From Candidatus Omnitrophota bacterium (GTDB lineage: Bacteria; Omnitrophota; Gorgyraeia; Zapsychrales; Fredricksoniimonadaceae), in the NCBI GenBank assembly GCA_903908245.1, contig CAIVRE010000022.1:864-64863 (forward strand): a DNA stretch of 64,000 nucleotides, written 5' to 3'. The notes beneath the pieces are model-generated. The model was not told where the DNA came from, searched no databases, and worked only from the letters and a program-made list of their open reading frames with translations. The position numbers and the translations under genes were made by a program. Positions 10,301 through 27,429 of this stretch are shown piece after piece (position 1 is the first letter of the stretch; the number at the start of each line of letters is the position of its first letter).

Positions 10301-10350
10301 CATTAGGGACGCGGTTCGAATTGGTTGCAGATGCGTCCGAGTTTCTTCCT

Positions 10351-10901: not shown

Positions 10902-10924
10902 ATGAAATTATTAATCAATAGGTC

Positions 10925-11010: not shown

Positions 11011-11058
11011 AATTGCTATCGAATTGATCATGTGTTAATATTTCCGTAGAGGAAACAT

Positions 11059-11319: not shown

Positions 11320-11329
11320 TGGAGGGCAT

Positions 11330-11901: not shown

Positions 11902-13608
11902 ATGATCGGAATTGGATCACAGATTCGCGATAGGCGTCCCCGCCTGTTCCAGGGGCTACTTCCTATAAAAAATTCGGGAATATCGGCCGAAGTGATCGCG
12001 GGGATCACTTTGGCAGCCCTTGCGGTTCCCGAAGTGATGGGCTATACCAAGATCTCTGGTACGCCGGTGATCACCGGTTTATATACTTTACTTATTCCCA
12101 TGATTTTATATGCCATCTTCGGTTCCTCCCGACATTTAGTTGTCGGGGCGGACTCGGCAACTGCGGCTATTCTTGCGGCGGGATTGGCCGGGATAGCGAT
12201 AACAGGGTCTCATGAGTATCTGGCGCTTGCCGGAGTTCTGGCGTTAATGTCCGCTGGCTTATTGATCGTCGCACGTGTTATCGGACTTGGTTTTATGGCG
12301 GATTTCCTTTCGCGGACCGTGCTCATCGGATTCTTGACCGGGGTTGGTTTTCAAGTCGCTTTGCGAGCGATCCCAGGCATGCTGGGCCTTCCAGAAGGCG
12401 GGCACGACCTGATTGACAAGATCGTGAACACTTTGCATCAGATCGGCCAGATGAATTTCTACGACCTGGCGATATCGGTTATTGTGATCGGAGTCATTAT
12501 TGGATCAGAGAAGATGTCCCCAAAGATCCCCGGGGCTCTCATTGCCGTGATTGGTGCCATCGTTGTCAGTTGGGCATTTAATCTCAAAGTTTACGGTGTT
12601 CATACGCTGGGGGATGTTCCACAAGGACTGCCTTGGATCGGCTTGCCAGATGTTCATTGGTCTTATGCCCTTGTTCTGAAGATGCTTCCGACGGCCTTTT
12701 CAATGGTTGTTGTCATTTTGGCCCAAAGTGCTGCGACCTCGCGGGCTTATGCGGCGCGATACAATGAACCATTTAACGAGAATGTCGATCTGATCGGTCT
12801 CGGCCTGGCCAATGCAGGCGCAGCATTATCCGGGACGTTTGTTGTGAACGGAAGTCCAACCAAGACCCAGATGGTTGATAGTGCTGGCGGCCGCAGTCAG
12901 CTGGCCCAGGTCATAACGAGCCTGATCGTCCTTCTGGTCCTGTTGTTTTTTACAGGGCCACTGACTTATATGCCCAGCGCTGTCCTTTCTGCGGTGGTTT
13001 TTCTTATTGGCTTGCAGCTGGTAGATATCCAGGGGATGCACAAGGTCTGGCGACAGCGTCCACCCGAGTTTTGGGTAGCGCTGGTCACGGCCGTTGTGGT
13101 CGTCCTGGTCGGTGTTGAGCAGGGGATCGTTACCGCCATGGTGCTTTCTTTGATGGAGCATGTACGACGCAGCTACCGGTCGAAGAATGTCGTGCTGGTG
13201 CTCGACAAGGCGACAGGTGTCGGGCGGCTTTTGCCGGTGACTACGCCGGAGCAGATCGAGCCTGGGCTTTTGGTGTACCGGTTCGCCCACACGATGTACT
13301 ATGCCAATGCTCAACAACTGTTTGAGGAGGTCATCAGCCTTGCTGAAGGAGCACGGCCCGTTCTGTCCTGTTTTTGCGTTGACGCATCAGCGGTTGCTGA
13401 TGTGGATTTCTCGGCAGCAGAAACTTTACGCGAAATCCATGGGGTTCTGAAGACCCGGGGGATCCGGCTTGTTTGGGCGAATGTCATTGCCCCCTTAAAG
13501 GCTGAGTTCGACAGGTACGAACTCATTGGGTTGTTTGGCAAAGATGCGTTTTACGATAACATCAGTGATGTTGTGGATTCTTATCTCAGATATGAGAGGC
13601 CCAATTAG
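11902..13608 (+). CDS. SulP-family anion transporter with C-terminal STAS domain
   Basis: 568 aa. N-terminal SulP signature region (AGITLAALAVPEVMGYTKISG). ~11 TM segments. C-terminal STAS-like domain. Confidence 0.8.
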   Translation: MIGIGSQIRDRRPRLFQGLLPIKNSGISAEVIAGITLAALAVPEVMGYTKISGTPVITGLYTLLIPMILYAIFGSSRHLVVGADSATAAILAAGLAGIAITGSHEYLALAGVLALMSAGLLIVARVIGLGFMADFLSRTVLIGFLTGVGFQVALRAIPGMLGLPEGGHDLIDKIVNTLHQIGQMNFYDLAISVIVIGVIIGSEKMSPKIPGALIAVIGAIVVSWAFNLKVYGVHTLGDVPQGLPWIGLPDVHWSYALVLKMLPTAFSMVVVILAQSAATSRAYAARYNEPFNENVDLIGLGLANAGAALSGTFVVNGSPTKTQMVDSAGGRSQLAQVITSLIVLLVLLFFTGPLTYMPSAVLSAVVFLIGLQLVDIQGMHKVWRQRPPEFWVALVTAVVVVLVGVEQGIVTAMVLSLMEHVRRSYRSKNVVLVLDKATGVGRLLPVTTPEQIEPGLLVYRFAHTMYYANAQQLFEEVISLAEGARPVLSCFCVDASAVADVDFSAAETLREIHGVLKTRGIRLVWANVIAPLKAEFDRYELIGLFGKDAFYDNISDVVDSYLRYERPN

Positions 13609-13632: not shown

Positions 13633-14010
13633 ATGAAAATGGCCAAAAAAATCAAAACGACATGGTTGAGCAAATCAGAGGATCATGACTATCCGGCGGC
13701 CATGTCTTATTTAGGACTGTTGTATGATGAAAAAACATTGGCTATGAAGGTGAAAAAGTTGCGGCAGGCACATATGTCTTATTTTAAAGCAAAGGACATT
13801 CTCAGGGCGTCAGGGTCGCCTTTATTAAGTGTAAACAATTTTCACGTTAAGAAAGACCAGGAGAAGATATTGTCGAGGAAAAAGTTGTCTCCCCTGCTTC
13901 TTGTCCGTGATACAAAGAATGGGAAACTGGTCATCGCGGATGGTTATCATCGCATGTGTGCTGTTTATTTTTATGATGAGGACGCCGTGATCCCGTGCAA
14001 AATTATATAA
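13633..14010 (+). CDS. hypothetical 125-aa protein between the two SulP genes
   Basis: Good RBS (AGGAGG). No recognisable motif. Confidence 0.4.
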   Translation: MKMAKKIKTTWLSKSEDHDYPAAMSYLGLLYDEKTLAMKVKKLRQAHMSYFKAKDILRASGSPLLSVNNFHVKKDQEKILSRKKLSPLLLVRDTKNGKLVIADGYHRMCAVYFYDEDAVIPCKII

Positions 14011-14198: not shown

Positions 14199-15854
14199 AT
14201 GTTCGCGCCAAAGCTGGTTACCTGTCTTAAAGATTACTCCAGGGAGAAATTTGTTGCGGATTGCATCGCCGGCTTTATTGTCGGTGTGGTGGCCATTCCG
14301 CTGGCGGTCGCTTTTGCCATTGCTTCAGGTGTTTCGCCGGATAAGGGCCTTTTTACAGCGATCATTGCGGGTTTCTTCGTTTCTGCTTTGGGCGGGAGCC
14401 GTGTGCAGATCGGCGGGCCGACAGGGGCTTTTGTTGTTATTGTTTACGGGATCGTGCAGAAATACGGGATCGATGGCCTGGTCATTGCGACATTGATGGC
14501 AGGGATATTGCTTGTGATCATGGGCCTGGCGAAATTCGGGACGGCGGTCAAGTTTGTTCCTCATTCCGTTATAGTGGGGTTCACCAGCGGCATTGCGGTC
14601 ATTATTTTTTCGTCCCAGGTTAAGGATTTTCTCGGCCTCAACGTCGATAAAGTTCCGGCGGAGTTCATCGGGAAATGGCGTGTTTTTATTGAGCATTTTA
14701 ACACGCTTAATTATGATGCATTGGCTCTGGGGCTTTTGACGGTCCTTATTATTGTTATATCACCTAGGCTTGTCAGGCGGATACCGGGGGCGCTCATTGC
14801 CTTGATCGCAGTTTCGTCCTTGTCCGCTTTTCTTTGTATCCCTGTTGAAACGGTCGGCAGCCGTTTCGGGGAATTACCGCATACACTTCCCATGCCGCAT
14901 TTTCCGGCCTTAAGCTTTGCCAGGATCCGGGAGCTTTTTCAGCCGGCGGTGACTATCGCTCTTTTGGGAGCGATCGAGTCTTTACTGTCGGCTATTGTGG
15001 CTGACGGGATGATCGGTGCCAGGCATCGGTCCAATACGGAACTTGTCGGTCAGGGGGTTGCGAATATCGCTTCTGCGCTTTTTGGCGGTATCCCGGCCAC
15101 AGGAGCTATTGCCCGGACGGTGACGAATGTCAAGAACGGCGGAAGAACTCCTGTTGCCGGCATGGTCCACGCGGTCACGGTCCTTTTGATCATGTTCTTT
15201 TTAGGGGGGTTGATCAAATTTGTCCCGTTGGCGTGTTTGGCAGGTATCCTGGTTGTGGTCGCTTATCATATGAGCGAGTGGCGGTCGTTCGGCGCGCTTC
15301 TGCACTGGTCTAACGGCGGCCGGATGGTCCTTTTGGCCACATTTTTTCTGACGGTTTTTGTGGACCTGAATGCCGCGATCGAGGTCGGTGTAGTGTTGTC
15401 TGCGTTCATCTTTATGAAACGGATGTCGGATGCCACGAATATCAAGGTATTCGCCAAGGAGTTTGCGGATGATGACGCAGGGGAGGATCGGGTCTTATCG
15501 TCGTTCGTTATTCCGCCCCGTGTCGAGGTTTACGAGATAAACGGGCCGTTGTTCTTCGGAGCCGCCAACCGCTTTGATGAAGCGGACCGGGAGGTGAGTT
15601 TAAGGCCGAAAGTTCGTATCCTGCGTTTTCGTGATGTCCCGCTCATCGATTCCACCGGGATGCATGCCCTTAAGAGTTTTTATGAGAAAAGCAAACGGGA
15701 GAATATTTCTCTTATCATCACCGGCCTTCATGTCCAGCCTCTCAATGAAATGGTCAAGGCCAGTCTTTACGAGCTTATAGGAGAGGAGAATGTTTTCTCC
15801 GGCATGAAAGACGCGATCAGACGGGCAGAAGAGCTCTTAAAACAAAAGAATTAG
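14199..15854 (+). CDS. SulP-family anion transporter (DauA/BicA-like) with STAS domain
   Basis: 551 aa. Blocks FVADCIAGFIVGVVAIPLAVAFAIASG and GGPTGAFVVIV typical of SulP. C-terminal STAS. Confidence 0.8.
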   Translation: MFAPKLVTCLKDYSREKFVADCIAGFIVGVVAIPLAVAFAIASGVSPDKGLFTAIIAGFFVSALGGSRVQIGGPTGAFVVIVYGIVQKYGIDGLVIATLMAGILLVIMGLAKFGTAVKFVPHSVIVGFTSGIAVIIFSSQVKDFLGLNVDKVPAEFIGKWRVFIEHFNTLNYDALALGLLTVLIIVISPRLVRRIPGALIALIAVSSLSAFLCIPVETVGSRFGELPHTLPMPHFPALSFARIRELFQPAVTIALLGAIESLLSAIVADGMIGARHRSNTELVGQGVANIASALFGGIPATGAIARTVTNVKNGGRTPVAGMVHAVTVLLIMFFLGGLIKFVPLACLAGILVVVAYHMSEWRSFGALLHWSNGGRMVLLATFFLTVFVDLNAAIEVGVVLSAFIFMKRMSDATNIKVFAKEFADDDAGEDRVLSSFVIPPRVEVYEINGPLFFGAANRFDEADREVSLRPKVRILRFRDVPLIDSTGMHALKSFYEKSKRENISLIITGLHVQPLNEMVKASLYELIGEENVFSGMKDAIRRAEELLKQKN

Positions 15855-15884: not shown

Positions 15885-16220
15885 ATGAAGAAGATCGATG
15901 ACATGGTTTTCAAGATCAAGGCGGATTTTTTAAAAGCGCTGGCACATCCTGTCCGCCTTCAGATCATTGAATATCTCAAGAACGGGGAGGCCAGTGTTGG
16001 CAAGCTGGTGCAGGAACTGGGAGTGGAACAGTCGAGCCTTTCGCGTCATTTGGGTATTCTAAGGGACTTGGGGGTGCTGGAAGCCCGTCCGGAAAAGACG
16101 AATGTGTATTATAATCTTCATGACCATGATATTTTGAAGGTCCTGCGGCCTATCGCGGAGCTTCTTCGAAAGAAATTGAGACGCAGTGAGAAACTTTTAG
16201 AAAGCCTTGGGAAAGAGTAG
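15885..16220 (+). CDS. ArsR/SmtB-family transcriptional regulator
   Basis: LAHPVRLQIIEYL...SVGKLVQELGVEQSSLSRHLGILRDLGVL is a winged-HTH ArsR signature. Confidence 0.8.
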   Translation: MKKIDDMVFKIKADFLKALAHPVRLQIIEYLKNGEASVGKLVQELGVEQSSLSRHLGILRDLGVLEARPEKTNVYYNLHDHDILKVLRPIAELLRKKLRRSEKLLESLGKE

Positions 16221-16908
16221 CGGCTGTATGCAATTGACCTTTCGTGATATAGAGCTCGCGTTTGAGATCAACGAGAAGATCCTTTATCAATGGCTTAATA
16301 CCCTGGGGTTACCGGCGGTCAAGGCCAATGACCAGTATTATTTTAATTCCGTCGAGGTATTGGAGTGGGCGCTTAAGAACCAGATCCCTTTGACCTCCGG
16401 TGCGCTTAAGCTTTGTGAAAAGAGCCGGCCTGGCGTGGATATTTTTATGCCGGCGCTTGTGCGCGGGGGGGTGTATTCCGGGATATCCGGGGCCGCGCGA
16501 GAGGAAGTCCTTGAGAATGTCTTGAAAATATTGCCATTGCCCGGGAATATTGACCGCGTTGCCTTGAAGGAAATACTATTGTCCCGTGAACAGACGGGGA
16601 CCACCGGTATCGGCAATGGCATTGCCATTCCACATGTTAAGCATCCTGTTATTCTGGCCGGGCTCGAGCCGGTGGTGGGGTTATTCTTCCTGGAGGGCTC
16701 GGTTGATTTTGCCGCTTTTGACGGTCAACGGGTCCATACATTGTTCGTGATATTGACCGGTTCGTTCAAAGGGCATTTATCGTTATTGTCCCGTCTGGCT
16801 TTTTGTTTGCAGGAGGAAAGCGTTAAGGCTGTCCTTGGCCGTCGGGCAAGTCGTGAAGAGATCCTCGCGGCATTTCAGGTCGCGGAATCCAAGATCGTCC
16901 GGGTTTGA
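16207..16908 (+). CDS. HTH-domain / PTS EIIA(Ntr)-type fusion regulator
   Basis: C-terminal PTS EIIA-2 domain with active-site block GNGIAIPHVKH. N-terminal ~60 aa MerR/excisionase-like HTH. The start overlaps the ArsR stop and the stop overlaps the next gene. Start could instead be the internal Met (MQLTF...). Confidence 0.65.
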   Translation: MGKSSGCMQLTFRDIELAFEINEKILYQWLNTLGLPAVKANDQYYFNSVEVLEWALKNQIPLTSGALKLCEKSRPGVDIFMPALVRGGVYSGISGAAREEVLENVLKILPLPGNIDRVALKEILLSREQTGTTGIGNGIAIPHVKHPVILAGLEPVVGLFFLEGSVDFAAFDGQRVHTLFVILTGSFKGHLSLLSRLAFCLQEESVKAVLGRRASREEILAAFQVAESKIVRV

Positions 16909-18749
16909 TCATAATGAAAAATATCTTTCAAATGACATGGCAGGTCCCTTTCGGGGAGTTCGTGCTCAAGCTTGATCCGTTGAGCCTGGTTTTTCTTCTG
17001 GCTGTGACCATCCTTCTTTTGTGCGCCGGCGTTTATGCGGTAGGGTATATGCGGCCATATCAAGGAAAAAAGCCGCTGCTTCCTCATATTTTCTTCTATT
17101 TGTTGTTTGCATTTTCTTTGGTCCTTATCGTTACTGCCAACAATGTGATCCTTTTTCTGGGCGCTTGGGAAACGATGACGATCTCCACGTATTTTCTTAT
17201 TATTTTCTTTGACGAAAAAGAATCGGTGCGAAAGGCGGGTTTTCTTTATTTGATCGCGTCGCATTGCGCGACATTTTGCCTTTTTCTGATGTTTTTTCTG
17301 ATGGCGCACGCGGCCGGGTCGATGAATTTTGATATGATCGCGCGGGCAAGTTTCCCGCCGGTCCTGTCCGGGACCATTTTCCTGCTGGCTTTGGCCGGTT
17401 TTGGAGTGAAGGCGGGTTTTCTTCCGTCACATATATGGCTGCCGTATGCACATCCGGCCGCACCTTCCCATATTTCCGCGCTTCTTTCGGGAGTTGCGAT
17501 CAAGATGGGGATCTACGGGATCTGCCGTGTGTTATGGATCATGGATATCCTTCCGGACTGGTGCGGCTACCTGCTGGTCGTGATCGGTGTTATTTGCGGG
17601 ATCATGGGGGTCCTGTATGCGCTGGGACAGCATGAGTTGAAGAAATTGCTGGCGTATCACAGTATTGAGAATATCGGCATTATTGCGATCGGGCTTGGGG
17701 TCGGGTTATTGGGGCGTAGTTATCATCTGCCTTTTCTGGCGGTCCTGGGGTTTGGCGGCGGGTTGTTGCATGTGCTCAATCATTCTCTTTTTAAAGGCCT
17801 TTTGTTCCTGGCAGCGGGATCCGTGATCCAAAAGACACATTCCGGTGAAATAGACAAGCTGGGAGGGGTGGCGAAAGCCATGCCGGTGACGAGTGTGTTG
17901 TTCCTGGTCGGGGCTTTGTCCATTTGCGGGCTGCCGTTATTCAACGGGTTTATTAGTGAGTTTATTGTTTTTTTCGGGCTTTTTCAGGGGATGTTCACTT
18001 TGCCTTTATCGGGGGTGATCTTTTGTGTATGGGGGATACTCTCTTTGGCCTTGATGGGAGCGCTGGCGCTGGCTTGTTTCAGTAAAGTGTACGGGGCGGT
18101 TTTTTCCGGGCAGCCGCGTTCGATCTTGGAAGGGCTTGAAGATCCTGCAGGGAAAGGCGAGTCGACTTCCAAATGGATGTTGATCCCTATGATCGTCCTT
18201 GCGGGCGTATGTGTCTGGATCGGGCTTGCGCCAAGGGCGATGGCGATGTTTACTTTTCTGGGTGGGGCATACTTGACGCATGTTGAACTTTCCATGGTCG
18301 ATCTCGGGCAGGTTTTTATTCCGTTGACAATGGTCATAGGGGTCCTTCTTTTGTTTATCGCGCTTATTATGGGGTTGATCGTGATCCGCCGTCTTCTTCT
18401 GGGGGCTGAGTCAACTCCTGTCCGGGAAGCGTGGGGCTGCGGTTTTACCCGGGTTTCCGCGCGCTCGCAGTATACGGCTTCTTCTTTTGCCCGGATGATC
18501 CTGGATTTTGTTAAGAACCTTCTGTTCTTTCGTCGTGAAGGGGGAATGGTGGAGGGTATTTTTCCGGTGAAGGTCCGCCTGGAGTCTTCGGTCCGGGATG
18601 TTGCTGAAGAAAAGGGATTCCGCCCTTTGTTGACCGGATTGACTTTATTATCCAGAAAGATCGATGCCGGACGGGTGCACTATACTCAAATGTACCTGAT
18701 GTATATTTTTCTGTTCTTGATCTTTTTACTGGTATGGAAACTGAAATGA
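16905..18749 (+). CDS. NuoL/MnhA/HyfB-like antiporter-type membrane subunit
   Basis: 614 aa polytopic. WLPYAHPAAPSHISALLSG matches the NuoL/MrpA WLPDAMEGPTPVSALIH block. Confidence 0.8.
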   Translation: MIIMKNIFQMTWQVPFGEFVLKLDPLSLVFLLAVTILLLCAGVYAVGYMRPYQGKKPLLPHIFFYLLFAFSLVLIVTANNVILFLGAWETMTISTYFLIIFFDEKESVRKAGFLYLIASHCATFCLFLMFFLMAHAAGSMNFDMIARASFPPVLSGTIFLLALAGFGVKAGFLPSHIWLPYAHPAAPSHISALLSGVAIKMGIYGICRVLWIMDILPDWCGYLLVVIGVICGIMGVLYALGQHELKKLLAYHSIENIGIIAIGLGVGLLGRSYHLPFLAVLGFGGGLLHVLNHSLFKGLLFLAAGSVIQKTHSGEIDKLGGVAKAMPVTSVLFLVGALSICGLPLFNGFISEFIVFFGLFQGMFTLPLSGVIFCVWGILSLALMGALALACFSKVYGAVFSGQPRSILEGLEDPAGKGESTSKWMLIPMIVLAGVCVWIGLAPRAMAMFTFLGGAYLTHVELSMVDLGQVFIPLTMVIGVLLLFIALIMGLIVIRRLLLGAESTPVREAWGCGFTRVSARSQYTASSFARMILDFVKNLLFFRREGGMVEGIFPVKVRLESSVRDVAEEKGFRPLLTGLTLLSRKIDAGRVHYTQMYLMYIFLFLIFLLVWKLK

Positions 18750-19663
18750 TATTATCGATCTTTTTTCACTGGTTCTTCGTGTGCCTGACCGCGCCGTTCT
18801 TTCTTGGCGTGATCGGCAGGGTCAAGGCTTTTGCCTCGGGTAAGGTAGGACCGCCTTTATTGCAGCCGTATTTTGATCTGGGCAAGCTTTTTCGTAAAAG
18901 AAGCATATACAGCCGCAATATGACATGGGTATTTCGTCTGGCTCCGGCCGTCACTTTTGCGGCAATGCTTGCGGTGTCTTTGCTGGTCCCGTTCGGTGCA
19001 TTAAAAGCGCCGGTCCAGTTCGAGGGAGATATCCTTTTGATCGTGGGGGTCCTGGCGCTTAGCCGGTTCTTTATGATCGCGGCTGCGATGGATACGGGGT
19101 TTAGCATGGAAGGCATGGGGGCCAGCCGTGAAGCGTTCTTCGCGTGCCTTTCTGAAGTCGCGCTTTTCATGAATTTTATTACCCTGGCGCTTTTGGCACA
19201 TAGTCTCTCGCTTTCAAGGATGCTTGGCGCGGATAGTCCTGTCTCCTGGAATCTCCTTGGGCCTGCACTCCTTTTGGTGGTGGCCAGTTTTTTCATTGTA
19301 TTTCTGGCGGAGAATTGCCGTATCCCGATTGACGATCCTGATACGCATCTGGAACTGACCATGATCCATGAGGTGATGCTTCTGGAGCATGGCGGGGTGG
19401 ATCTGGCGTATATGTTTTACGCGGCGGCAGTGAAATTTTTTATTTTTGCGGCGATATTGGTCCCTATTATCCTTCCTGTTCAAACGGAGTATCTTTGTGT
19501 GCGAATGATGTCTTTTCTTGGCGGGATGCTGGGATTATCGGTCCTGGTTGGGATCGTGGAATCGTCGATGGCGCGTATCCGTCTTGACCGGGTCAGGAAC
19601 CTTTTATTGATCTCTTTTGCTTTGGCGTTTTTCGGCCTTATTGTCGCGCTGTGGAGGGGGTAG
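18734..19663 (+). CDS. NuoH/HyfC/HycD-like membrane subunit
   Basis: N-terminal GKVGPPLLQPYFDLGKLFRK matches the NuoH RxGPNxxGxxGLLQPxADxxKL motif. Confidence 0.75.
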   Translation: METEMILSIFFHWFFVCLTAPFFLGVIGRVKAFASGKVGPPLLQPYFDLGKLFRKRSIYSRNMTWVFRLAPAVTFAAMLAVSLLVPFGALKAPVQFEGDILLIVGVLALSRFFMIAAAMDTGFSMEGMGASREAFFACLSEVALFMNFITLALLAHSLSLSRMLGADSPVSWNLLGPALLLVVASFFIVFLAENCRIPIDDPDTHLELTMIHEVMLLEHGGVDLAYMFYAAAVKFFIFAAILVPIILPVQTEYLCVRMMSFLGGMLGLSVLVGIVESSMARIRLDRVRNLLLISFALAFFGLIVALWRG

Positions 19664-19664
19664 G

Positions 19665-20318
19665 ATGACCACCTGGATCGATGCCAGCTGTATTCTGATC
19701 GTATTCTTTGCCCTGAGTATTCTGGCGACATCCCGTATTGTCGGGATGATCCAGATCTTTGTGCTGCAGTCGTTCGTCCTCAGCCTGATGCCGCTCTTTT
19801 TGCATGCCAATGCCATTTCTGCGCATGATCTTTTGCTTTCTTTCGGCACGATGCTGCTTAAGGCGGCACTTGTTCCCTTTGTCCTTTTTTGGGCGATCCG
19901 GCATATTTCCATGCGTTCCGAGGTTAAGCCTCTCATCGGGCTTGGTTCATCGATCGTTTGCGGTGCTCTTTTGATCGCCGGGGCTTTCTGGGTTTCTTTG
20001 TCGTTGCGATTGCCGGGCAGGCCGGAGACTGACCTGGGGTTGCCGTGTTCACTGGCGACCGTCCTGCTCGGGTTTATGATCATGGTGACGCGTACGCGGG
20101 CGGTGACCCAGGTTATCGGGTATTTGGTCATTGAGAACGGCATTTTTCTTTTTGCGGTATCGTTATTCGATGCCATGCCGACCCTGATCGAATTGGGGAT
20201 CCTTCTGGATATTTTTGTGGCTGTTTTTATCATGGCCATTGTGCTTAATCATATTAACGAGGAATTCGAACAGAATTCCGATATCGCGAGTCAGTCTAAA
20301 ATGGGAGAAACGTTTTGA
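19665..20318 (+). CDS. HyfE-like small membrane subunit
   Basis: 217 aa from the ATG preceded by GGAGGGGG. Hydrophobic. Size and position as for HyfE. Confidence 0.55.
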   Translation: MTTWIDASCILIVFFALSILATSRIVGMIQIFVLQSFVLSLMPLFLHANAISAHDLLLSFGTMLLKAALVPFVLFWAIRHISMRSEVKPLIGLGSSIVCGALLIAGAFWVSLSLRLPGRPETDLGLPCSLATVLLGFMIMVTRTRAVTQVIGYLVIENGIFLFAVSLFDAMPTLIELGILLDIFVAVFIMAIVLNHINEEFEQNSDIASQSKMGETF

Positions 20319-21727
20319 TCTTGTCCTTGTTGATCCTGACACCGTTCTTGTGCGCTGTTTCCGTCTTGTTGCCGGTCAGAAGGATGTTCCGTGTATGGAT
20401 GTTGTGTGCCGCTGCCGTAGCCCATAATGCGGTGGTTGTTTCATTTTGGTTCCGCCTTCCGCCTGCGGAATGGAACGGTTACCTGGTCCTTGATCCTTTG
20501 GGGCTGATCGTCTTGTCGATCGTCAGTTTTCTTTTTTTGTTCGTGTCGGTATTCGGGATCGGGTATTTTGAACACGAACAGAGGCTTAATCGTACGTTCA
20601 TGACGTGTTTGCTGCTTCTTCTTTCAACGATGACGCTTGTGACGGTGAGTTATCATATGGGGCTTTTGTGGGTGGCTGTTGAAACGACAACGCTGTTCAG
20701 CGCGCCGCTTATCAGTTTTCACCGCAGCCGCGGGAGCCTGGAAGCGACCTGGAAGTATTTACTGGTTTGTTCGGTTGGTATCGCATTGGCGTTGATGGGG
20801 ACATTCTTTCTGGCTATTGCGGCCCATGATGTCCGGACGCTTCTTTTGCCGTCCTTGCTCAGCGCAGCGCCGTTGTTATCCGTCAACTGGTTGAAATTGA
20901 GCGTTATTTTCCTTCTGGTCGGCTACGGCTGCAAGATGGGTTTGGCGCCGATGCACAGCTGGAAGCCGGAGGCTTATGGCCAGGCGACAGGCATGGCGGT
21001 CGTTTTAATGGCCGGAGGCTTGACGCAATGCGCTTTTTTGGCCATTCTCCGGGTCAGCCAGATCTGTTTTAAGACGGGATTAAGCGATTTTTTTTCTTCG
21101 ATCCTGATCCTGACCGGGGTTCTGTCGCTGGTGGTCCCGGCGATATTTATTCTGGCAGAAAAGAATGTTAAAAGGTCTTTTTCCTATTCTTCCATTGAAC
21201 ATATGGGGATACTTGCGCTGGGACTCGGGTTGGGAGGCGTCGGGATCTTCGGTGCTTTATTCCATATGATCAATAATGCGCTTGCGAAAGTCGTGATGTT
21301 CCTGACGGCAGGGTCCATTGCCCAGAAATACGGCTCATCCCGGGTGGATGATGTCCGGGGACTTATAAAGACATATCCTGTGACAGGGTTATTTCTGATC
21401 GTTGCCTTGCTGGCAGGGACGGGGATGTTCCCTTTCGCCACTTTTCACAGCGAGTTGATGGTTCTTAATGCCGCGGTCATTTCCGGGCATTATGTCCTTT
21501 CCGGGGTGGCGGTTTTATGCCTGGCGGTCATGTTCATCGGAGTGTCGAGGATCGTTCTTGAGATGGTTCATGGCCAGCCGACGGAGCCGTTATTGGCAAA
21601 GAAAGAGAATCCTTTTATGAATGTGGCGATCGCGGCAGCGGCAGTAGCGCTGGTCGGGCTTGGGCTCTGGATGCCTCAGCCTCTGGAAAGAGTTCTGCGC
21701 GAAGCGGCCGCCTTGTTGGGAGCGTAA
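20315..21727 (+). CDS. NuoN/NuoM/HyfF-like antiporter-type membrane subunit
   Basis: 470 aa polytopic. Conserved Lys/Glu-containing antiporter-fold helices. ATGA overlap with the upstream gene. Confidence 0.75.
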   Translation: MILSLLILTPFLCAVSVLLPVRRMFRVWMLCAAAVAHNAVVVSFWFRLPPAEWNGYLVLDPLGLIVLSIVSFLFLFVSVFGIGYFEHEQRLNRTFMTCLLLLLSTMTLVTVSYHMGLLWVAVETTTLFSAPLISFHRSRGSLEATWKYLLVCSVGIALALMGTFFLAIAAHDVRTLLLPSLLSAAPLLSVNWLKLSVIFLLVGYGCKMGLAPMHSWKPEAYGQATGMAVVLMAGGLTQCAFLAILRVSQICFKTGLSDFFSSILILTGVLSLVVPAIFILAEKNVKRSFSYSSIEHMGILALGLGLGGVGIFGALFHMINNALAKVVMFLTAGSIAQKYGSSRVDDVRGLIKTYPVTGLFLIVALLAGTGMFPFATFHSELMVLNAAVISGHYVLSGVAVLCLAVMFIGVSRIVLEMVHGQPTEPLLAKKENPFMNVAIAAAAVALVGLGLWMPQPLERVLREAAALLGA

Positions 21728-21733
21728 GAAATC

Positions 21734-23245
21734 ATGGGATTATTTAATGGCGGGAATATTGCTTTAACGGATATTCCTGTTTTGACATCAGATGAATTTC
21801 GGGGTGAAGTTGTTCGTCACTGTCAAAGCGGCGACCGACTGGTGAATCTTTTCGGGAGTTCCGACGGGCCGCAGGGGGTGCGTTTATTCGCGGTCCTTGG
21901 GCTCGAAGATGAAGGGGGGCTTCTGGTGTTATCAACCAGGGTCCTGGCCGGATCCCCGAGTTACAGGTCGATCACCAGGGACTTGCCGGCAGCTCATTTG
22001 TTCGAGAGGGAGATCGCCGAGCAATGGGCTATCCTGCCCGAGGGGCATCCCTGGCTCAAGCCTGTCCGGTATCATGTGAATTATCGCGGCGTTGCGGATA
22101 TTTGGCCGGAGATCGAACGGCGTTCGATCCCGGGGGTGTATCCTTTTTACGCCATGGACGGCGATGAAGTTCATGAAGTGGGTGTCGGCCCGGTACATGC
22201 CGGCATTATTGAGCCCGGGCATTTCCGGTTCCAGTGCCATGGTGAAAATATTTTGCATTTGGAGATCCAGCTGGGATATCAGCATCGCGGAATTGAGCCG
22301 ATGCTGTGCGGCCGCGATTTGAAACGCGGCGTGTTACTCAGTGAATCTATTGCCGGGGATACTTCCATCGGACATTCCCTGGCCTTTTGTGAGGTTGTTG
22401 AGTCGCTGGCAGGGGTTATGGTCCCGCCCAGGGCGCAGGCTATTCGCGTTGCGGCGTTGGAGCTGGAGCGGCTGGTGAATCATGTGGGGGACCTGGGCGC
22501 TTTGGGAATGGATGCCGGGTTCCTGCCGACCAGCGCGTATTTTGGGCGGATGCGGGGTGATTATTTGAATTTATTGCTGGCGCTTACGGGCAACCGTTTT
22601 GGCAAGGGGTTATGCCGTCCGGGAGGTGTTGTGTTTGATATGGATGCCGGGATGGTGGACGAGTTTTGTTATAAGCTTAAATGTTATAAAAAAGAATTTG
22701 ATGATGTGAGCGGGCTTCTATTCTCACGGCCCTCGGTCCTGGCGCGTTTTGAAGGCGTCGGGGTGATAGCGATGGAGGAGGCTAAGATCCTTGGGCTTGT
22801 TGGGCCTGTTGCGCGCGCGAGCCAGCTGGAGCAGGATGTCCGCATTGAATATTCGTCGGGGATGTGGCAGTATTATCACATTCCGATCTCTTTATCTGCG
22901 ACGGGTGATGTGCTTGCCCGTGCTTTGGTTCGGCGGCAGGAAGTATTGCGCTCCATTGAGTTCCTGCTCAAGATACTCCCCGGGTTGCCCAAGGGGCCTG
23001 TTTCGGCCCCTGTGGGGCCGATGAAGGCGGACAGCTTTGCCGTGTCTATGGTCGAGGGATGGCGCGGGGAGATCATGCATGTCGGGATCACGGATGACCA
23101 GGGTTCTTTCACCCGTTACAAGGTCAAGGACCCCTCTTTTCATAACTGGTTCGGACTGGCACAGGCAATGCGCGGCCAGGAAATATCAGACTTTCCTTTG
23201 TGTAACAAGAGTTTCAATTTATCTTATTGCGGGCATGACCTATGA
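21734..23245 (+). CDS. NuoC-NuoD / HycE-like large subunit, apparently lacking [NiFe] cysteine ligands (Ehr-type)
   Basis: GVGPVHAGIIEPGHFRF...GYQHRGIEP matches NuoD/HycE. The position of the L1 motif RxCGxCxxxH reads SIAGDTSIGH. The C-terminal DPCxxCxxR position reads NLSYCGHDL. Confidence 0.7.
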   Translation: MGLFNGGNIALTDIPVLTSDEFRGEVVRHCQSGDRLVNLFGSSDGPQGVRLFAVLGLEDEGGLLVLSTRVLAGSPSYRSITRDLPAAHLFEREIAEQWAILPEGHPWLKPVRYHVNYRGVADIWPEIERRSIPGVYPFYAMDGDEVHEVGVGPVHAGIIEPGHFRFQCHGENILHLEIQLGYQHRGIEPMLCGRDLKRGVLLSESIAGDTSIGHSLAFCEVVESLAGVMVPPRAQAIRVAALELERLVNHVGDLGALGMDAGFLPTSAYFGRMRGDYLNLLLALTGNRFGKGLCRPGGVVFDMDAGMVDEFCYKLKCYKKEFDDVSGLLFSRPSVLARFEGVGVIAMEEAKILGLVGPVARASQLEQDVRIEYSSGMWQYYHIPISLSATGDVLARALVRRQEVLRSIEFLLKILPGLPKGPVSAPVGPMKADSFAVSMVEGWRGEIMHVGITDDQGSFTRYKVKDPSFHNWFGLAQAMRGQEISDFPLCNKSFNLSYCGHDL

Positions 23246-23261
23246 ATGACCGGGTGGATCA

Positions 23262-23939
23262 ATGTTGAGGATTCTGATAACACGTTTTAAACAGGGGTGC
23301 CGCACTTTATCTTTCCCCAAGGGGGCGCTCCCCGTCCTTCCTGTGCGTTACCGTGGCCGCCCTGTCATTGCCGGTCAGGGAGGGGCGCTGGATCTTGGCG
23401 CAATGACTTTTATCCCTGACAGCGGGGTCCGGTATTCCAATGACTTCCGAATGGCGGTGAGGCGGAGGGAAGATCTGATCCTTAAGGGGGATGAGTACGC
23501 GCTGGCACGGGCAGTGAATGACGGGATCGTGAAAATGTTCGGACGTTCGCTGAAACTTCGGCAGGTCTCGGCCGGGGGGTGCAACGCGTGTGAGGCGGAC
23601 ATTAATGTTTTGAACACGCCTGTGTTCGATCTTAGCCGTTTTGGGATCCAGTTCGTGGCGTCTCCCCGGCATGCCGATGGCATTGTTGTGACTGGCCCTG
23701 TTACGCGCAATATGCGGGAGGCGCTCGTGAAGACCTACGAGGCGGTCCCGGACCCAAAGATCGTTATTGCCGTCGGGGCTTGTGCTGTTTCGGGGGGGAT
23801 CTTTGCGGATACTCCGCAATGTTCCAACGGATTGGGGGATATTCTTCCTGTCGACCTGTATATTCCCGGTTGCCCTCCGCATCCGTTAACGATCCTCGAT
23901 GGGCTGTTAAGATTGATCGGAAGGTTAAGCAAGGGGTAG
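23262..23939 (+). CDS. NuoB/HycG-like small subunit with [4Fe-4S] ligands and ~95-aa N-terminal extension
   Basis: GGCNACE, SPRHADGIVVTG, VGACAVSGG, YIPGCPPHP. Confidence 0.8.
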   Translation: MLRILITRFKQGCRTLSFPKGALPVLPVRYRGRPVIAGQGGALDLGAMTFIPDSGVRYSNDFRMAVRRREDLILKGDEYALARAVNDGIVKMFGRSLKLRQVSAGGCNACEADINVLNTPVFDLSRFGIQFVASPRHADGIVVTGPVTRNMREALVKTYEAVPDPKIVIAVGACAVSGGIFADTPQCSNGLGDILPVDLYIPGCPPHPLTILDGLLRLIGRLSKG

Positions 23940-24004: not shown

Positions 24005-25387
24005 ATGTCATTTCGTGTCCGCCTTACAATAGCGATGATCCTTTCAATGTTGCTGATCGTTGTTTTAAGCAATATTGTTATCCAGCGGTTTCTTCTCAAT
24101 GCCCAGCTCCAGGAATTACGGGACAAGCTCAAGACAGTGGCCCAGACTGCGGCCGTTAGTGTCGATCCTTCTGTTTTGCAGGCGATCCCTTTGAATAAAG
24201 AGGGGGTTCATTCGCCTGCTTACAAGACAGTTGCGAATTTTCTTGTCCGGGTCCGTGACAACAATCAAAAGATACAGTATATTTATATTCTTACCAGGGT
24301 TGGGAAAGAGGGGTTTTGGCGGTTTGTTGCTGATATTGACTCGAAGAATGTTAAAGACAAGGCTGCGGCGTTCCCCGGGGATAAATATGATGCCTCCCGT
24401 TTTTCGGAGATGCTCAAGGCCTGGGAGGGGCCTTCATCGGACAAGGATATTGAGGTTGATGAGTGGGGGGCTTCTCTGTCGGGTTATGCGCCGATCAGGG
24501 GTGCGGATGGTCAGACCATCGCGGTCCTGGGGGTGGATATATCGGCAGGGAATTATTATGCCACACTTCGTGTGGTCAATGACCGGACCCTTTTGTTGTT
24601 CTTCGCGGGCGTTCTTCTTTCTCTTGTTGTCGGTGTACTGATGTCGATCTATATCACGGCACCTATTGAGGCATTGGTGGAGGGGACAAAGCGCCTCAGC
24701 CTGGGGGACTTGCAGCATAAAGTCCCTGTAAGAAGAAAAGACGAGATCGGACAGCTGGCCGTGTCTTTTAACAAGATGGCGGGTGATCTTGACAGCGCGA
24801 GAGAACAGAACCTGAATTATTTCTATGGCGTTATCAAGGCACTGGTGCGTATTGTTGAGGCAAAGGACAAATATACCCGTGGTCATTCGGAGCGGGTAGC
24901 CGAGTATGCTGCGGGGATCGCGGCCAAGATGGGGTTTTCCAGGGATGATATTAATTTTGTCCGGCAAACGGCGGTCTTGCATGATATCGGGAAGATTGGG
25001 ATCCAGGATGATATCTTGAACAAGAACGGAGCCTTGACGGAGGAAGAGAGAGAGATCGTTAATCAGCATCCCAAGGTCGGCGAGGAGATCATTATGCCGG
25101 TGGCATTTGCGCCTGAGATGGCGGCGGTCATTCGCGGGCATCATGAGCGTTATGACGGAAAAGGTTATCCCGACTCTTTGCAGGGTGAAAATATCAGTAT
25201 TTTCTCCAAGATCATCTGCGTGGCGGATTCTTATGATGCCATGACATCCACCCGCGCTTATCGCAGTGCCCGCACGCGTGATGAGGCCATGGCCGAGATC
25301 AGAAAGAACAGGGGCACACAATTCGATCCTGCAGTTGTCGATGCTTTTTTTGCCCTCATCAACGATGAAGTCAGGGCGGTCATATGA
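24005..25387 (+). CDS. membrane-anchored HD-GYP phosphodiesterase with periplasmic sensor and HAMP domain
   Basis: Two TM segments flank a ~240-aa periplasmic domain. HAMP: DEIGQLAVSFNKMAGDL. HD-GYP: HDIGKIGI...HHERYDGKGYP. Start at 24005 chosen over the upstream overlapping extension. Confidence 0.75.
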   Translation: MSFRVRLTIAMILSMLLIVVLSNIVIQRFLLNAQLQELRDKLKTVAQTAAVSVDPSVLQAIPLNKEGVHSPAYKTVANFLVRVRDNNQKIQYIYILTRVGKEGFWRFVADIDSKNVKDKAAAFPGDKYDASRFSEMLKAWEGPSSDKDIEVDEWGASLSGYAPIRGADGQTIAVLGVDISAGNYYATLRVVNDRTLLLFFAGVLLSLVVGVLMSIYITAPIEALVEGTKRLSLGDLQHKVPVRRKDEIGQLAVSFNKMAGDLDSAREQNLNYFYGVIKALVRIVEAKDKYTRGHSERVAEYAAGIAAKMGFSRDDINFVRQTAVLHDIGKIGIQDDILNKNGALTEEEREIVNQHPKVGEEIIMPVAFAPEMAAVIRGHHERYDGKGYPDSLQGENISIFSKIICVADSYDAMTSTRAYRSARTRDEAMAEIRKNRGTQFDPAVVDAFFALINDEVRAVI

Positions 25388-27429
25388 TCAATTGCTCCTG
25401 GCTTGGCCTCTTACGACGGCCTTCGATCCTTATCCCTGTTGCCTTTATTGTCTGGACAGCCTCTCTGTGGGGTTTTTTGAGCGGCCGTGTCGGGCTGACT
25501 TCGGATGCGGTTTCCTATTATGAACATACGAAATTCTTCATTGACCAGATAGGCCGCGGGCAGTTCCCTTTATGGGACCCTTATTGGAGCGGAGGTGTTC
25601 CCAATGATTTCTTTCTGCGCCGCATCGGGCCATATAATCCGTTCTTGCTGATCGTTCTTGTCCTTAACAAGCTGGGCGTGAAATTTTTAAGCGCCTATAT
25701 GATATTTCAGGCCCTGTATTTCTTTTTTGGAATGACAGGGTTTTATCTCTTGAGCCGAAAGCTGTTGAAAGACGGATCGGCCGCGTTCCTGGCTTTTTTG
25801 TTGCTGACATTCTCCGCGCTGGGCACAAGGATGTTCGATTCGTATATGCTCCTGGTCACTATTCCGGCGATATGGTTTTTTTATTTTCTGGTGTCTTTCT
25901 TTATTGAGCCCCGAAGGTCCCGCGCGGCGGGCATGACCGTGGCGTTGATGCTCCTGGTAACGACCTATGTTCCTTTGTATTTCCTGGTGATCCTGCTTTT
26001 TTTCATTCTTGCGTATGTTCTTGTTTTTTGGAGGGATATCCCTTGCCGCATATCTTCTCTTTTCGGTTTTATAGGCCGGAACAAGGCCTTTTCAGTTGTA
26101 TGCGCCGCGGCGATCCTGGCAGCCATGATCCCGGGTCTGTCTTTTTACGGAGATGCAGGGAAAGGCGGGATCGCTATTCCCGGCCGCCATTATAATACTG
26201 AAGCCAGGCATGTCCTGGTGGTCGAGCCGCAGTTGCTCAGCCCCTGGTCGATCATGGAGGAATTTTTCTTTTCGTATTATTTTACAGATCTTACCCGTAT
26301 CGCTTTTGCGATCGTTTATGTGCCGTTATTTGCTTTTTTGGTCCTTGGGGCAGGGATATTTTCCCGCCTTACGGGTTTGTTCGTTTTGTTATTCCTTTGG
26401 GGTGTGAGTTTGTTGCTTTTTTCAATGCCAATTGGGTTCCCGATGTACGGTTTTCTTTATAAATACCTCGGGTTCGTGAAATATTTCAGGAACCTTCATT
26501 TTCTTTTATGGTTTGCCGGTTTACCGATCTTTGCTTTACTTGTCGGAGAGGCCTGGAAAAACCTGGCCGAGCAGCGGTTGGAGAAGCGGTCCTGGAGATT
26601 GTTGATCGTTGTTGTTATCGTGCATTTTCTGGCTTTTCTTTTTTTGTGGTTGCAGGGAGATGCGCTGGTTTCGACTTTCCTGGCCCTGGCGCTTAGCGGC
26701 TGTGCCTGGGGGGTTTTCTTGTCACGCAGTCAACGGATCCATCAATGGCTTTTGCCGGCATTGCTTCTTGCCATTGTGGTTCAACCGGTGGAGGTTTTTT
26801 CTTATCTGTCGCGGAATTATCCCCAAGGGGAGACAGGGTCTTTTTACACGAATTTTGATTATAAATTTGCTCATATTACTCAGCATGCAGGAGAGGGCCG
26901 TATCCCTTCTTTGGAGAATAGCGCATACATGTCTTTGTCCGGAACTCCCCCTACCTTGTATTATTCAACGGATATATATAAAACCCTGCGTGCGAAAGTC
27001 GGGGCGAGTGATCTTGAGCGGTATGAGCGATTCAAGTTTTATCTTTACGATCAGCGGCCTTTGTCCGATAGCCTGACGGATGCGTTTTCCGGTGTTCCGG
27101 TCAAGGCGGACAGCGATCTTTTGCGTGTCCAGAAGTTCGGGGTCAACGAGGTGGTCATTAAGGCCCGTCTGGGTTCCCCGAAATTCGTGGTTTACAATGA
27201 TGTGAATTATCCCGGGTGGTCTTTGATGGTCAATGGGAAAGCCCAGTCATTGGAAACGACGAATGGGGCGTATAAAGGGTTTTGGTTGCCGGCTGGCGAG
27301 AGCGTGGCCAGCCTTCGGTTCGGTTCTTTTGGGAAACACTTGTTCAACTGGATCGTCATGATGTCTTTTTACGGGATGTTTTCTTATACGATCTTTTTAT
27401 ATTGCCGGAGACGGTATGCCGCAGTTTAA
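25384..27429 (+). CDS. YfhO-like polytopic membrane protein (putative GT-C glycosyltransferase)
   Basis: 681 aa, >10 TM. C-terminal NYPGWSLMVNGKAQSL...FWLPAGESVASLRF resembles the YfhO C-terminal module. Confidence 0.45.
   Translation: MINCSWLGLLRRPSILIPVAFIVWTASLWGFLSGRVGLTSDAVSYYEHTKFFIDQIGRGQFPLWDPYWSGGVPNDFFLRRIGPYNPFLLIVLVLNKLGVKFLSAYMIFQALYFFFGMTGFYLLSRKLLKDGSAAFLAFLLLTFSALGTRMFDSYMLLVTIPAIWFFYFLVSFFIEPRRSRAAGMTVALMLLVTTYVPLYFLVILLFFILAYVLVFWRDIPCRISSLFGFIGRNKAFSVVCAAAILAAMIPGLSFYGDAGKGGIAIPGRHYNTEARHVLVVEPQLLSPWSIMEEFFFSYYFTDLTRIAFAIVYVPLFAFLVLGAGIFSRLTGLFVLLFLWGVSLLLFSMPIGFPMYGFLYKYLGFVKYFRNLHFLLWFAGLPIFALLVGEAWKNLAEQRLEKRSWRLLIVVVIVHFLAFLFLWLQGDALVSTFLALALSGCAWGVFLSRSQRIHQWLLPALLLAIVVQPVEVFSYLSRNYPQGETGSFYTNFDYKFAHITQHAGEGRIPSLENSAYMSLSGTPPTLYYSTDIYKTLRAKVGASDLERYERFKFYLYDQRPLSDSLTDAFSGVPVKADSDLLRVQKFGVNEVVIKARLGSPKFVVYNDVNYPGWSLMVNGKAQSLETTNGAYKGFWLPAGESVASLRFGSFGKHLFNWIVMMSFYGMFSYTIFLYCRRRYAAV

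Follow-up and report, generated by a model that had tools for sequence, protein, structure and literature searches.

An Omnitrophota Ehr complex predicted to hold a single iron-sulfur cluster behind a cysteine-less ferredoxin domain

Complexes of the Ehr (energy-converting hydrogenase-related) kind have been called a "missing link" that joins membrane hydrogenases to respiratory complex I, and they are found in hundreds of species, Geobacter, comammox Nitrospira and ammonia-oxidising archaea among them. The Geobacter sulfurreducens genes were reportedly described by Coppi in 2005 (EhrA-1/A-2/B/C/D/L/S, GSU0739-0745), the family is said to have been surveyed by Marreiros et al. in 2013, and to our knowledge the function of Ehr is still unsolved twenty years after it was named. 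As published, the complex comprises HyfB-like, NuoH-like, HyfE-like and HyfF-like proteins, a fused NuoC-NuoD protein and a fused NuoI-NuoB protein (PMC6349859, Supplementary Note 4). The literature describes Ehr as lacking the [NiFe] site, regards its role as unsolved and assumes that this role is a redox one (PMC6349859, PMC10284858, PMC7894505); the G. sulfurreducens Ehr and the survey of the family are cited via PMC3569383 and PMC7894505. Here we analyse a 64-kb stretch of DNA (64,000 nucleotides, hereafter the window) from a Candidatus Omnitrophota bacterium, contig CAIVRE010000022.1, in which six co-directional open reading frames (ORFs) at positions 16905-23939 encode an Ehr complex whose ligand pattern points to one [4Fe-4S] cluster instead of three.

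Operon architecture and family membership

An initial annotation, made by eye from the letters of the window, had recognised in this operon six genes for NuoL-, NuoH-, HyfE-, NuoN-, NuoCD/HycE- and NuoB/HycG-like subunits. Near-identical and related proteins carry database names that likewise assign the contig to Candidatus Omnitrophota. The ORF list and Pfam agree with the annotation on the genes, their types and their coordinates, which are as follows.

EhrA, 16905-18749, plus strand: HyfB/HycC/NuoL-like antiporter-type subunit (Pfam Proton_antipo_M, 8.5e-53; gene-caller start 16914)
EhrB, 18734-19663, plus strand: NuoH/HycD/HyfC-like subunit (Pfam NADHdh, 1.3e-33; gene-caller start 18746)
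EhrC, 19617-20318, plus strand: HyfE-like subunit with a NuoK-like segment (Pfam Oxidored_q2, weak, 3e-4; gene-caller start 19665)
EhrD, 20315-21727, plus strand: HyfF/NuoN-like antiporter-type subunit (Pfam Proton_antipo_M, 8e-37; gene-caller start 20384)
EhrL, 21734-23245, plus strand: fused NuoC+NuoD/HycE-like large subunit without [NiFe] ligands (Pfam Complex1_49kDa, 2.9e-36; Complex1_30kDa, 1.4e-4)
EhrS, 23262-23939, plus strand: small subunit, a ferredoxin-domain relic followed by a NuoB/HycG/MbhJ-like domain (Pfam Oxidored_q6, 9e-32)

The nearest NCBIfam models were HyfB for EhrA (9e-156), HyfE, the hydrogenase 4 membrane subunit, for EhrC (5e-24) and HyfF for EhrD (1e-86). None of the operon proteins reached an equivalog cutoff (HyfB, HyfE, HyfF or Nuo), and EhrS passed only the broad NuoB-family subfamily model. 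Among solved structures, the best phmmer match of EhrL was HycE (7z0s_E, 4e-47), with MbsL weaker (6u8y_L, 2e-19); EhrS was closest to MbhJ (6cfw_J, 1e-37) and then to HycG (7z0s_G, 2e-36), and EhrA matched HycC (7z0s_C, 2e-61). EhrA residue 19 pairs with HycC residue 69, the EhrA N-terminus being ~55 residues shorter than that of HyfB, HycC or NuoL. With the gene-caller starts, the gaps between successive genes are -4 nt (A/B), +1 nt (B/C), +65 nt (C/D), +6 nt (D/L) and +16 nt (L/S), so the translational coupling that had been claimed for the operon is plausible at some junctions and not at all of them. A promoter and terminator scan of 10-29.5 kb gave background-level results, and Rfam found only three tRNAs in the window, none of them near the ehr operon.

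The gene set and order match the published Ehr architecture exactly. A pattern scan at one genome per species found Ehr relatives in at least 595 species genomes, and 80 loci were fetched and compared (the labels of the loci named here run from L001, the window's own contig, to L086); the 80 are from Omnitrophota, Verrucomicrobiota, Planctomycetota, Gemmatimonadota, Acidobacteriota, Geobacter, Geomonas, Pelobacter, Desulfobacterales, Spirochaetota, Myxococcota, Riflebacteria and other groups. The order A-B-C-D-L-S is conserved across these loci, and the operon is present in at least ten phyla. At 47-50% EhrL identity, the order and the motifs recur in L028, L036, L057 and L051, which belong to Geobacter sp., Geomonas limicola, Geobacteraceae and Pelobacter; G. 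sulfurreducens itself was not among the loci retrieved. Database names of the Geobacter homologues are generic ("NADH-quinone oxidoreductase subunit C", "hydrogenase large subunit") and none carries the label Ehr, so the link to that name is made through architecture and literature. Among Omnitrophota, identity is 56-80% over more than 100 clusters. The initial assignment to Ehr is therefore borne out by the matching architecture and by Geobacter-type loci of the same order at ~50% EhrL identity, and we have very little doubt that the complex is an Omnitrophota member of the Ehr family, derived from a group 4 [NiFe]-hydrogenase of the hydrogenase-4/formate-hydrogenlyase (Hyf-like) type.

The hydrogenase-derived head and the ion-translocating subunits

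Four features of EhrL and EhrS describe the state of the former hydrogenase head.

Ex-L1 motif (hydrogenase RxCGxCxxxH), 22340-22375, plus strand: EhrL residues 203-214, 'SESIAGDTSIGH'
Ex-L2 motif and C-terminus, 23201-23242, plus strand: EhrL residues 490-503, 'CNKSFNLSYCGHDL'
NuoI/HycF-type 2x[4Fe-4S] relic, 23262-23546, plus strand: EhrS residues 1-95, with motif 1 deleted, motif 2 reading 'LDLGAMTFIPD' and the flanks kept
NuoB-type [4Fe-4S] ligands, 23580-23873, plus strand: EhrS C107 (23580-23582), C110 (23589-23591), C174 (23781-23783) and C204 (23871-23873)

In phmmer alignments, HycE 'RVCGICGFAH' pairs with EhrL 'SIAGDTSIGH', and HycE 'DPCY(SCTDR)' with EhrL 'NLSY(CGHDL)', the second match ('DPCY'/'NLSY') being extended without gaps to place S497 and G500. 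HMMER alignments to HycE and MbhL thus reproduce the two readings that had been made by eye, and the four [NiFe] ligand positions are occupied by A207 (Cys1), T210 (Cys2), S497 (Cys3) and G500 (Cys4). It had been proposed that at most one of these cysteines survives; the loss is confirmed, and in fact none is left, as C499 lies one position off the ligand register, and only 62 of 114 close homologues have Cys there. Alignment against HycE and MbhL gave no CxxC pair at L1 or L2, and EhrL stops where the mature (processed) HycE stops. Of the top 150 cluster representatives retrieved by searching 1.8 billion entries, ~125 show the same non-Cys pattern and carry the hallmarks '[AS]GD[TS]xxxH' and, at the C-terminus, 'NKSFNLSY[CAS]G[HNF]DL'; true CxxC hydrogenases surfaced only at ~35% identity ('ERICGVCAASH' / 'NKSFELCYSCTDR'). 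The alanine, threonine, serine and glycine at the four ligand positions, seen in the HycE, MbhL and family alignments, uphold the earlier judgement that H2 catalysis is unlikely. With all four [NiFe] cysteines replaced, in the window and in the whole family, it is virtually certain that the complex is not a hydrogenase.

The [NiFe] pocket appears now to be remodelled and largely acidic, comprising E160, D209, D260, D502, R444, K492, S497 and Y498. D209 is Asp in 130 of 141 Ehr-type representatives and Val or Ala in the sister CxxC hydrogenases, relative to which both D209 and D260 are Ehr-specific gains. Residues E160, D209, D260, R444, S497, Y498, G500 and D502 of EhrL, together with the end at 'DL', are invariant in all 80 loci. 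An AlphaFold model of EhrL from an 18-sequence alignment had a mean predicted local distance difference test score (pLDDT) of 64.9 and was poor at residues 110-184 and 467-503; because pLDDT is low in these key regions, the model serves as a fold match only (best Foldseek match 7z0s_E, E 2e-20, TM-score 0.67) and not as a source of pocket geometry.

Three EhrL cysteines, C168 (22235-22237), C490 (23201-23203) and C499 (23228-23230), are Ehr-specific, being absent from the sister CxxC hydrogenases. They co-occur across 50%-identity representatives, with odds ratios of 7-31 and p values of 2e-5 to 1e-11 uncorrected for phylogeny; none of the Gemmatimonadota loci retains C499, and 5 of 6 have also lost C168. 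The three could form a thiol or metal site, or else pair across strands, which remains a lead only, because the statistics ignore phylogeny and C499 is variable in Omnitrophota.

The four NuoB-type cysteines of EhrS pair with the ligands of MbhJ and HycG and are kept in 120 of 120 Omnitrophota homologues, so the initial annotation was right that the small subunit retains all of its [4Fe-4S] ligands. In most phyla, EhrS is a NuoI-NuoB fusion of 247-262 residues with two CxxCxxCxxxCP motifs up front. A Cys census and alignment to full-Cys orthologues found none of these eight ferredoxin cysteines in the window protein, and the deletion of motif 1 and replacement of motif 2 are present in every Omnitrophota sequence examined. 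The relic itself is conserved among the 120 homologues, with flanks 'FKQGxRTxxFPKG..P.RYRGRP' and 'SNDFRMAVxxREDL'. Pfam Fer4 matches only full-Cys EhrS orthologues, and the N-terminal 96 residues alone gave chance matches only against solved structures; the homology could be recognised because orthologues with intact cysteines bridge the alignment. The earlier statement that the complex has no ferredoxin subunit therefore stands in that no intact one is present, and needs amending in that EhrS residues 1-95 are a conserved, Cys-less NuoI/HycF-type domain. These ligand patterns show the Omnitrophota Ehr to be a streamlined variant, predicted to hold one NuoB-type [4Fe-4S] cluster instead of three.

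A second Ehr-type cluster stands in tandem with the first in one Omnitrophota genome (L085, 13173-20136), with an ArsR gene ahead of it. Its large subunit likewise has no [NiFe] cysteines ('SECVAGDSVISH' / 'NKSFDLSYAGNDL'), and in its small subunit, only 176 amino acids long, the ferredoxin relic is almost wholly deleted.

Cluster ligands have been lost in other lineages as well. In Gemmatimonadota (L012, L024, L031 and L042) one ferredoxin cluster is kept, by the first three cysteines of motif 1 and the last of motif 2, and the other is lost; the opposite cluster is kept in several Desulfobacterota lineages and two Geobacter-type loci (L047, L050, L052, L054, L066, L075, L077, L078, L081, L028 and L034). 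Since Gemmatimonadota and Desulfobacterota keep opposite clusters of a linear chain, one of the two groups must be without the bridging cluster, which of them depending on how N6a and N6b of complex I are assigned. In four Planctomycetota/Verrucomicrobiota loci (L016, L027, L076 and L080), two to four NuoB-cluster ligands are replaced in sequence that is otherwise well aligned (for example 'GGSGAEE', 'GAEAISGG' and 'GWPP'), and all eight ferredoxin cysteines are kept. These lineage-specific losses indicate that none of the three clusters is indispensable throughout the family.

The ion-translocating machinery, by contrast, is fixed. In EhrA, conservation across phyla is at least 96% at the buried residues E89, K169, K200, H289, H293, K297 and E352; conserved acidic residues of EhrB are E133, E141, E193, D200, D201, E207, E213 and E276, and E173 and E192 of EhrC and E123, K207 and K325 of EhrD are also conserved, the buried charged residues of these four subunits being at least 93% conserved overall. 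This pattern shows the EhrL pocket and the predicted ion-translocating residues to be under strong constraint.

Regulators, transporters and other genes of the window

The operon is flanked by transporter and regulator genes.

SulP1, 11902-13608, plus strand: SulP/SLC26 transporter with STAS domain, generic SULTR-like (Pfam Sulfate_transp, 3e-80; NCBIfam sulP subfamily, 2e-94)
125-aa protein between the SulP genes, 13633-14010, plus strand: no Pfam or NCBIfam match
SulP2, 14199-15854, plus strand: DauA/SLC26Dg-like SulP with STAS domain (NCBIfam DauA, 1e-150, 503 bits against a cutoff of 614)
ArsR/SmtB-family regulator, 15885-16220, plus strand (Pfam HTH_5, 1e-12; NCBIfam HTH_metalloreg, 1e-23, and weakly BigR-like)
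HTH-EIIA protein, 226 aa, 16228-16908, plus strand: excisionase/MerR-like HTH_17 domain and a PtsN-like EIIA-2 domain of the phosphotransferase system (PTS) (PTS_EIIA_2, 1e-17)
HAMP and HD-GYP membrane protein, 24005-25387, plus strand, 65 nt downstream of ehrS (Pfam HD_5, 1e-38; HAMP, 4e-14)

The HTH_17 match, weak in the window protein (0.038), reaches 3e-16 to 6e-17 in orthologues of the HTH-EIIA protein. Homologues were found in 39 of 82 loci; those that were mapped, from many phyla, have an ehrA gene directly downstream, and the active-site His motif 'GIAIPH' is conserved among them; in Geobacter-type loci the gene pairs with ehrA-1 and is sometimes divergent from ehrA-2BCDLS. Most simply, the HTH-EIIA protein would be a dedicated regulator of the ehr operon. 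The regulators had been described as unusual, but this gene is a hallmark of the family rather than a local oddity. An ArsR gene also adjoins Ehr in two Omnitrophota loci (L085 and L086), the second of which has a stand-alone 163-aa EIIA gene nearby.

SulP1 has prestin and plant SULTR as its best solved relatives, and SulP2 has SLC26Dg (5iof/5da0, 7e-57) and BicA (6ki1, 1e-51); the 125-aa protein has a homologue in no locus other than the window's own contig. DauA-like orthologues of SulP2, at 44-73% identity, adjoin the Ehr operon in Omnitrophota, Gemmatimonadota and Verrucomicrobiota (L003, L042, L058 and L073); in an Isosphaeraceae locus, a more distant SulP overlaps the ehrS stop. The placement of SulP transporters beside the complex, which the initial annotation had remarked on, thus recurs in four phyla. 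Among 75 same-strand immediate neighbours classified with Pfam, SulP was the commonest family (six, plus one convergent); also present were MFS (two) and, with one case each, SbtA-like, CLC and Na+/Ca2+ exchanger proteins. Six independent SulP cases in 80 loci correspond to p ~1e-3 against an assumed background of 1.5%. Of the 7 distinct Omnitrophota loci, 4 have SulP upstream and 3 have MFS or CLC downstream of ehrS. Apart from SulP, the ion-coupled transporters found directly beside Ehr comprise one SbtA-like protein (Sbt_1), one CLC, two members of MFS, one CitMHS protein and one Na+/Ca2+ exchanger, encoded at L015 12212-13489 (Sbt_1), L086 12224-13594, L004 5354-6673, L084 12275-13594 and 1364-2617, and L006 2989-4029.

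Redox partners are absent from the same neighbourhoods. Among the ORFs of the window that were scanned with Pfam there is no hyp, HycF/NuoI-type, NuoEFG, NuoA/J, PTS or ferredoxin gene, in agreement with the earlier observation that the window has no NuoI/HycF-type gene and no NuoEFG module, and no maturation protease gene was found in the window or among conserved neighbours. The 75 immediate neighbours include no formate dehydrogenase, carbon monoxide dehydrogenase, ferredoxin, hyp, NuoEFG or other redox partner.

Downstream of ehrS, the HD-GYP gene, a gene for a 681-aa membrane protein (~11 predicted transmembrane helices and a soluble C-terminal domain, no Pfam match) and a TPR gene follow co-directionally with overlapping stops and starts (24005-28048). 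The three products were considered as conserved Ehr components and rejected, being found only in near-identical contigs (for the HD-GYP protein, L001 and L002). A complete kdpABC and kdpD/kdpE potassium-uptake system lies 13 kb downstream of the operon (36777-44573). Kdp of Escherichia coli is a target of PtsN (EIIA-Ntr), and the closeness of these genes to an EIIA-linked ion complex may be a coincidence; no Kdp genes were found at other loci among recurrent gene families or immediate same-strand neighbours.

Upstream of the SulP genes, 7456-11575 is a possible mobile or phage remnant that holds a sigma-70 region-4/HTH protein, an ORF (8126-9982) whose terminase RNaseH-like match is weak, a minus-strand HTH protein (10124-10528) and a DUF4160/DUF2442 pair (11059-11575); GC content falls to 0.42 at 8-12 kb of the window. 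The three tRNA genes lie at 33927-34845, and a gene for a 1941-aa bacterial alpha-2-macroglobulin at 57458-63283. Nearly all genes of the window are on the plus strand, with GC skew uniformly positive and AT skew strongly negative over the membrane-protein genes.

Possible functions and comparison with known systems

We tentatively favour, with confidence somewhat short of even, a reading in which the complex is a cation/proton translocator, Mrp-like in effect, that supports the SulP transporters under HTH-EIIA regulation, its head being a structural, gating or sensing cap. The antiporter-like subunits EhrA and EhrD would exchange Na+ (or K+) for H+ in the manner of Mrp, and the ion machinery would further comprise the acidic channel in EhrB and EhrC and the acidic former [NiFe] pocket. 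What was once the hydrogenase head would be a cap with a structural, gating, ligand-sensing or redox-sensing part. In this way the complex would set or balance the coupling-ion gradient for the co-encoded SulP anion symporters and, in its relatives, for MFS, CLC, SbtA-like and Na+/Ca2+ exchanger partners. Expression would probably be controlled by the HTH-EIIA protein through a PTS-Ntr-type phosphorylation signal, to which the ArsR and HD-GYP proteins may contribute locally. A translocator is favoured because the Omnitrophota cluster is single and buried, because clusters have been lost elsewhere and because the partners are ion-coupled transporters. A single buried cluster behind a relic domain provides no wire from a cytoplasmic donor, and on balance we think net electron transfer through the arm improbable in the Omnitrophota lineage; the cluster losses in other lineages suggest that what the family conserves at its core is something other than the wire.

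Several points weigh against this reading. The mechanism is drawn from conservation and gene context. Which ferredoxin cluster is proximal to the NuoB cluster (N6a/N6b of complex I) is our assumption. SulP is next to Ehr in only 8 of 86 loci, and most neighbours are unrelated genes. The NuoB cluster, strictly kept in Omnitrophota (120 of 120), could take electrons from a directly docking donor, and the Cys census shows that most family members retain all 12 Fe-S cysteines in EhrS, which would be easier to explain if electron transfer still mattered. Geobacter Ehr proteins rise on formate, which has been taken as a redox link (PMC7894505).

Much of this speaks for the classical view of Ehr as a redox-driven ion pump, which we consider doubtful but a serious contender. 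Here a low-potential donor, ferredoxin or an unlinked enzyme, would directly reduce the single NuoB-type cluster, and a non-proton acceptor in the former [NiFe] pocket, whether quinone, a sulfur compound or another, would take up the electrons, with pumping as in Ech, MBH, MBS or complex I. Besides the invariant NuoB ligands and the three-cluster chain of most phyla, the conserved pocket and coupling elements fit this view, as do the redox role assumed in the literature (PMC6349859, PMC10284858, PMC7894505) and the formate response in Geobacter. EhrL D260 pairs with D139 of Nqo4, at the quinone site of Thermus thermophilus complex I; however, the quinone ligands Tyr87 and His38 of Nqo4 pair with G208 and I159 (numbering as counted in the printed alignment). 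A donor module or redox partner was found neither in the window nor beside any of ~85 related operons, the conserved relic ferredoxin domain presumably covers the cluster, and the bridging or NuoB cluster has been lost in some lineages.

NuoL-like proteins drive CO2 hydration in DAB and Cup, and the complex might be an anion or inorganic-carbon machine, an analogue of DAB (DabAB) or cyanobacterial NDH-1/Cup whose pocket, once accessible to gas, performs a non-redox reaction such as CO2 hydration, coupled to the removal of protons through the antiporter-like subunits and partnered with bicarbonate-type transporters. SulP proteins, the family of BicA, in 8 loci, the SbtA-like Sbt_1 of L015 and an invariant polar pocket with Asp, Glu, His, Arg and Lys would suit such a role. 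We nevertheless think it highly improbable, as no carbonic-anhydrase-like metal site is evident and the recurrent SulP is nearest to the DauA/SLC26Dg dicarboxylate transporters, not to BicA.

Database names suggest a complex I-type NADH- or ferredoxin:quinone oxidoreductase, and the PF00346 and PF01058 matches and the source names "NADH-quinone oxidoreductase subunit C/B" point the same way; an Omnitrophota survey took PF00346 as its marker of respiratory complex I (PMC10066038). Subunit content largely refutes this reading, to which we give very little credence: there are six subunits, with no NuoA/NuoJ, intact NuoI or NuoEFG, the nearest relatives are HycE, HycG and HyfBEF, no Nuo equivalog cutoff is reached, and the quinone positions are unconserved. 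Because EhrL matches PF00346 at 2.9e-36, some Omnitrophota complex I calls may themselves be Ehr. More broadly, "complex I" or "hydrogenase" calls made from PF00346 or from names in uncultured phyla may be Ehr, in which case the respiration and H2 metabolism inferred from them would change.

A recent paper states that the Geobacter Ehr is "already nonfunctional" (PMC13194489, 2026), and the missing catalytic metal site and the eroded Fe-S ligands of several lineages could likewise suggest an evolutionary relic without function. This is scarcely credible for a complex with six intact ORFs, pocket and cluster residues that do not vary, 56-80% identity over more than 100 Omnitrophota clusters, an operon in at least ten phyla and proteins detected and regulated in Geobacter proteomes; conservation across phyla, as read from these alignments, contradicts the label given to the Geobacter complex. 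That the operon encodes a true group 4 [NiFe]-hydrogenase misaligned by eye can be dismissed despite its overall homology to HycE and MbhL, given A, T, S and G at the ligand positions and the fact that neither the scanned ORFs of the window nor the conserved neighbours include a hyp or protease gene.

Returning to the translocator reading, a wider form of it would hold for Ehr as a whole: the complexes would no longer be oxidoreductases but a widespread set of cation/proton translocators, derived from hydrogenases and under PTS-Ntr-type (HTH-EIIA) control, with the pocket an acidic ion or ligand site and the clusters dispensable leftovers. We regard this generalisation as unlikely. The Omnitrophota Ehr would then be the most reduced working version, with one cluster or, in the second L085 paralogue, a 176-residue small subunit, wired to SulP, MFS, CLC or SbtA-type transporters. 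The pattern in any case narrows the question of what Ehr does: clusters are dispensable by lineage, the pocket and ion channel are fixed, an HTH-EIIA gene lies upstream and the partners are transporters. The question is thereby made sharper and testable, through ion flux, PTS-dependent regulation and anion uptake, and is not solved. The NuoI-NuoB fusion and the Ehr family themselves are already known; in the searchable literature we did not find described a phylum-wide Cys-less relic or single-cluster state, the loss of every cluster set against an invariant pocket, a conserved HTH-EIIA gene with Ehr or a transporter-only neighbourhood, and nothing was found there linking EIIA with NuoL or hydrogenase-4.

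Compared with the Ehr complexes of Geobacter and Margulisbacteria (PMC6349859), the window complex has the same six protein types in the same order, the NuoC-NuoD fusion and no CxxC pairs. It differs from them in having none of the eight NuoI-half cysteines and so ligands for one Fe-S cluster rather than three, a shorter EhrA and a single ehrA gene, and in its setting among SulP, ArsR and HD-GYP genes. The closest solved structures for EhrL and EhrA belong to the E. coli hydrogenase 4 (HyfABCDEFGHI) and formate hydrogenlyase 1 (FHL-1, HycBCDEFG; PDB 7Z0S) type, and the Ehr gene order mirrors hyfB-C-(D)-E-F-G-(H)I. Unlike those enzymes, the window complex has no [NiFe] ligands, HyfA/HycB, formate dehydrogenase, HyfD or separate HycF/HyfH, and no hyp/hycI maturation genes lie near its operon; both the CxxC pairs and the three-cluster wire of group 4 [NiFe]-hydrogenases are missing.

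The Pyrococcus furiosus complexes MBH (6CFW) and MBS/Mbx (6U8Y) share homologous NuoB-, NuoD-, NuoH- and antiporter-like modules, and MBS sets a precedent for descent from a hydrogenase with loss of H2 production. Of their 13-14 subunits, some form a full Mrp-type Na+/H+ module and one is a separate ferredoxin protein with two clusters (MbxA-G and MbxN in the 13-subunit MBS); the window complex has six subunits. With complex I/NDH-1, which has 11-14 core subunits, all six proteins share common ancestry, D260 at the Asp139 position and the antiporter-type charges, but NuoA, NuoJ, NuoEFG, an intact NuoI and the quinone Tyr87/His38 pair are lacking. Finally, Mrp (Mnh/Pha) antiporters have in common with the window complex MrpA/MrpD-type subunits with the canonical buried Glu, Lys and His residues, and the role proposed for Ehr would likewise lie in Na+/H+ balance in support of Na+-coupled transport. 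Mrp comprises MrpB, C, E, F and G and no NuoH/NuoB/NuoD-type head, whereas the window complex has such a head, so that the resemblance would be one of working and not of membership.

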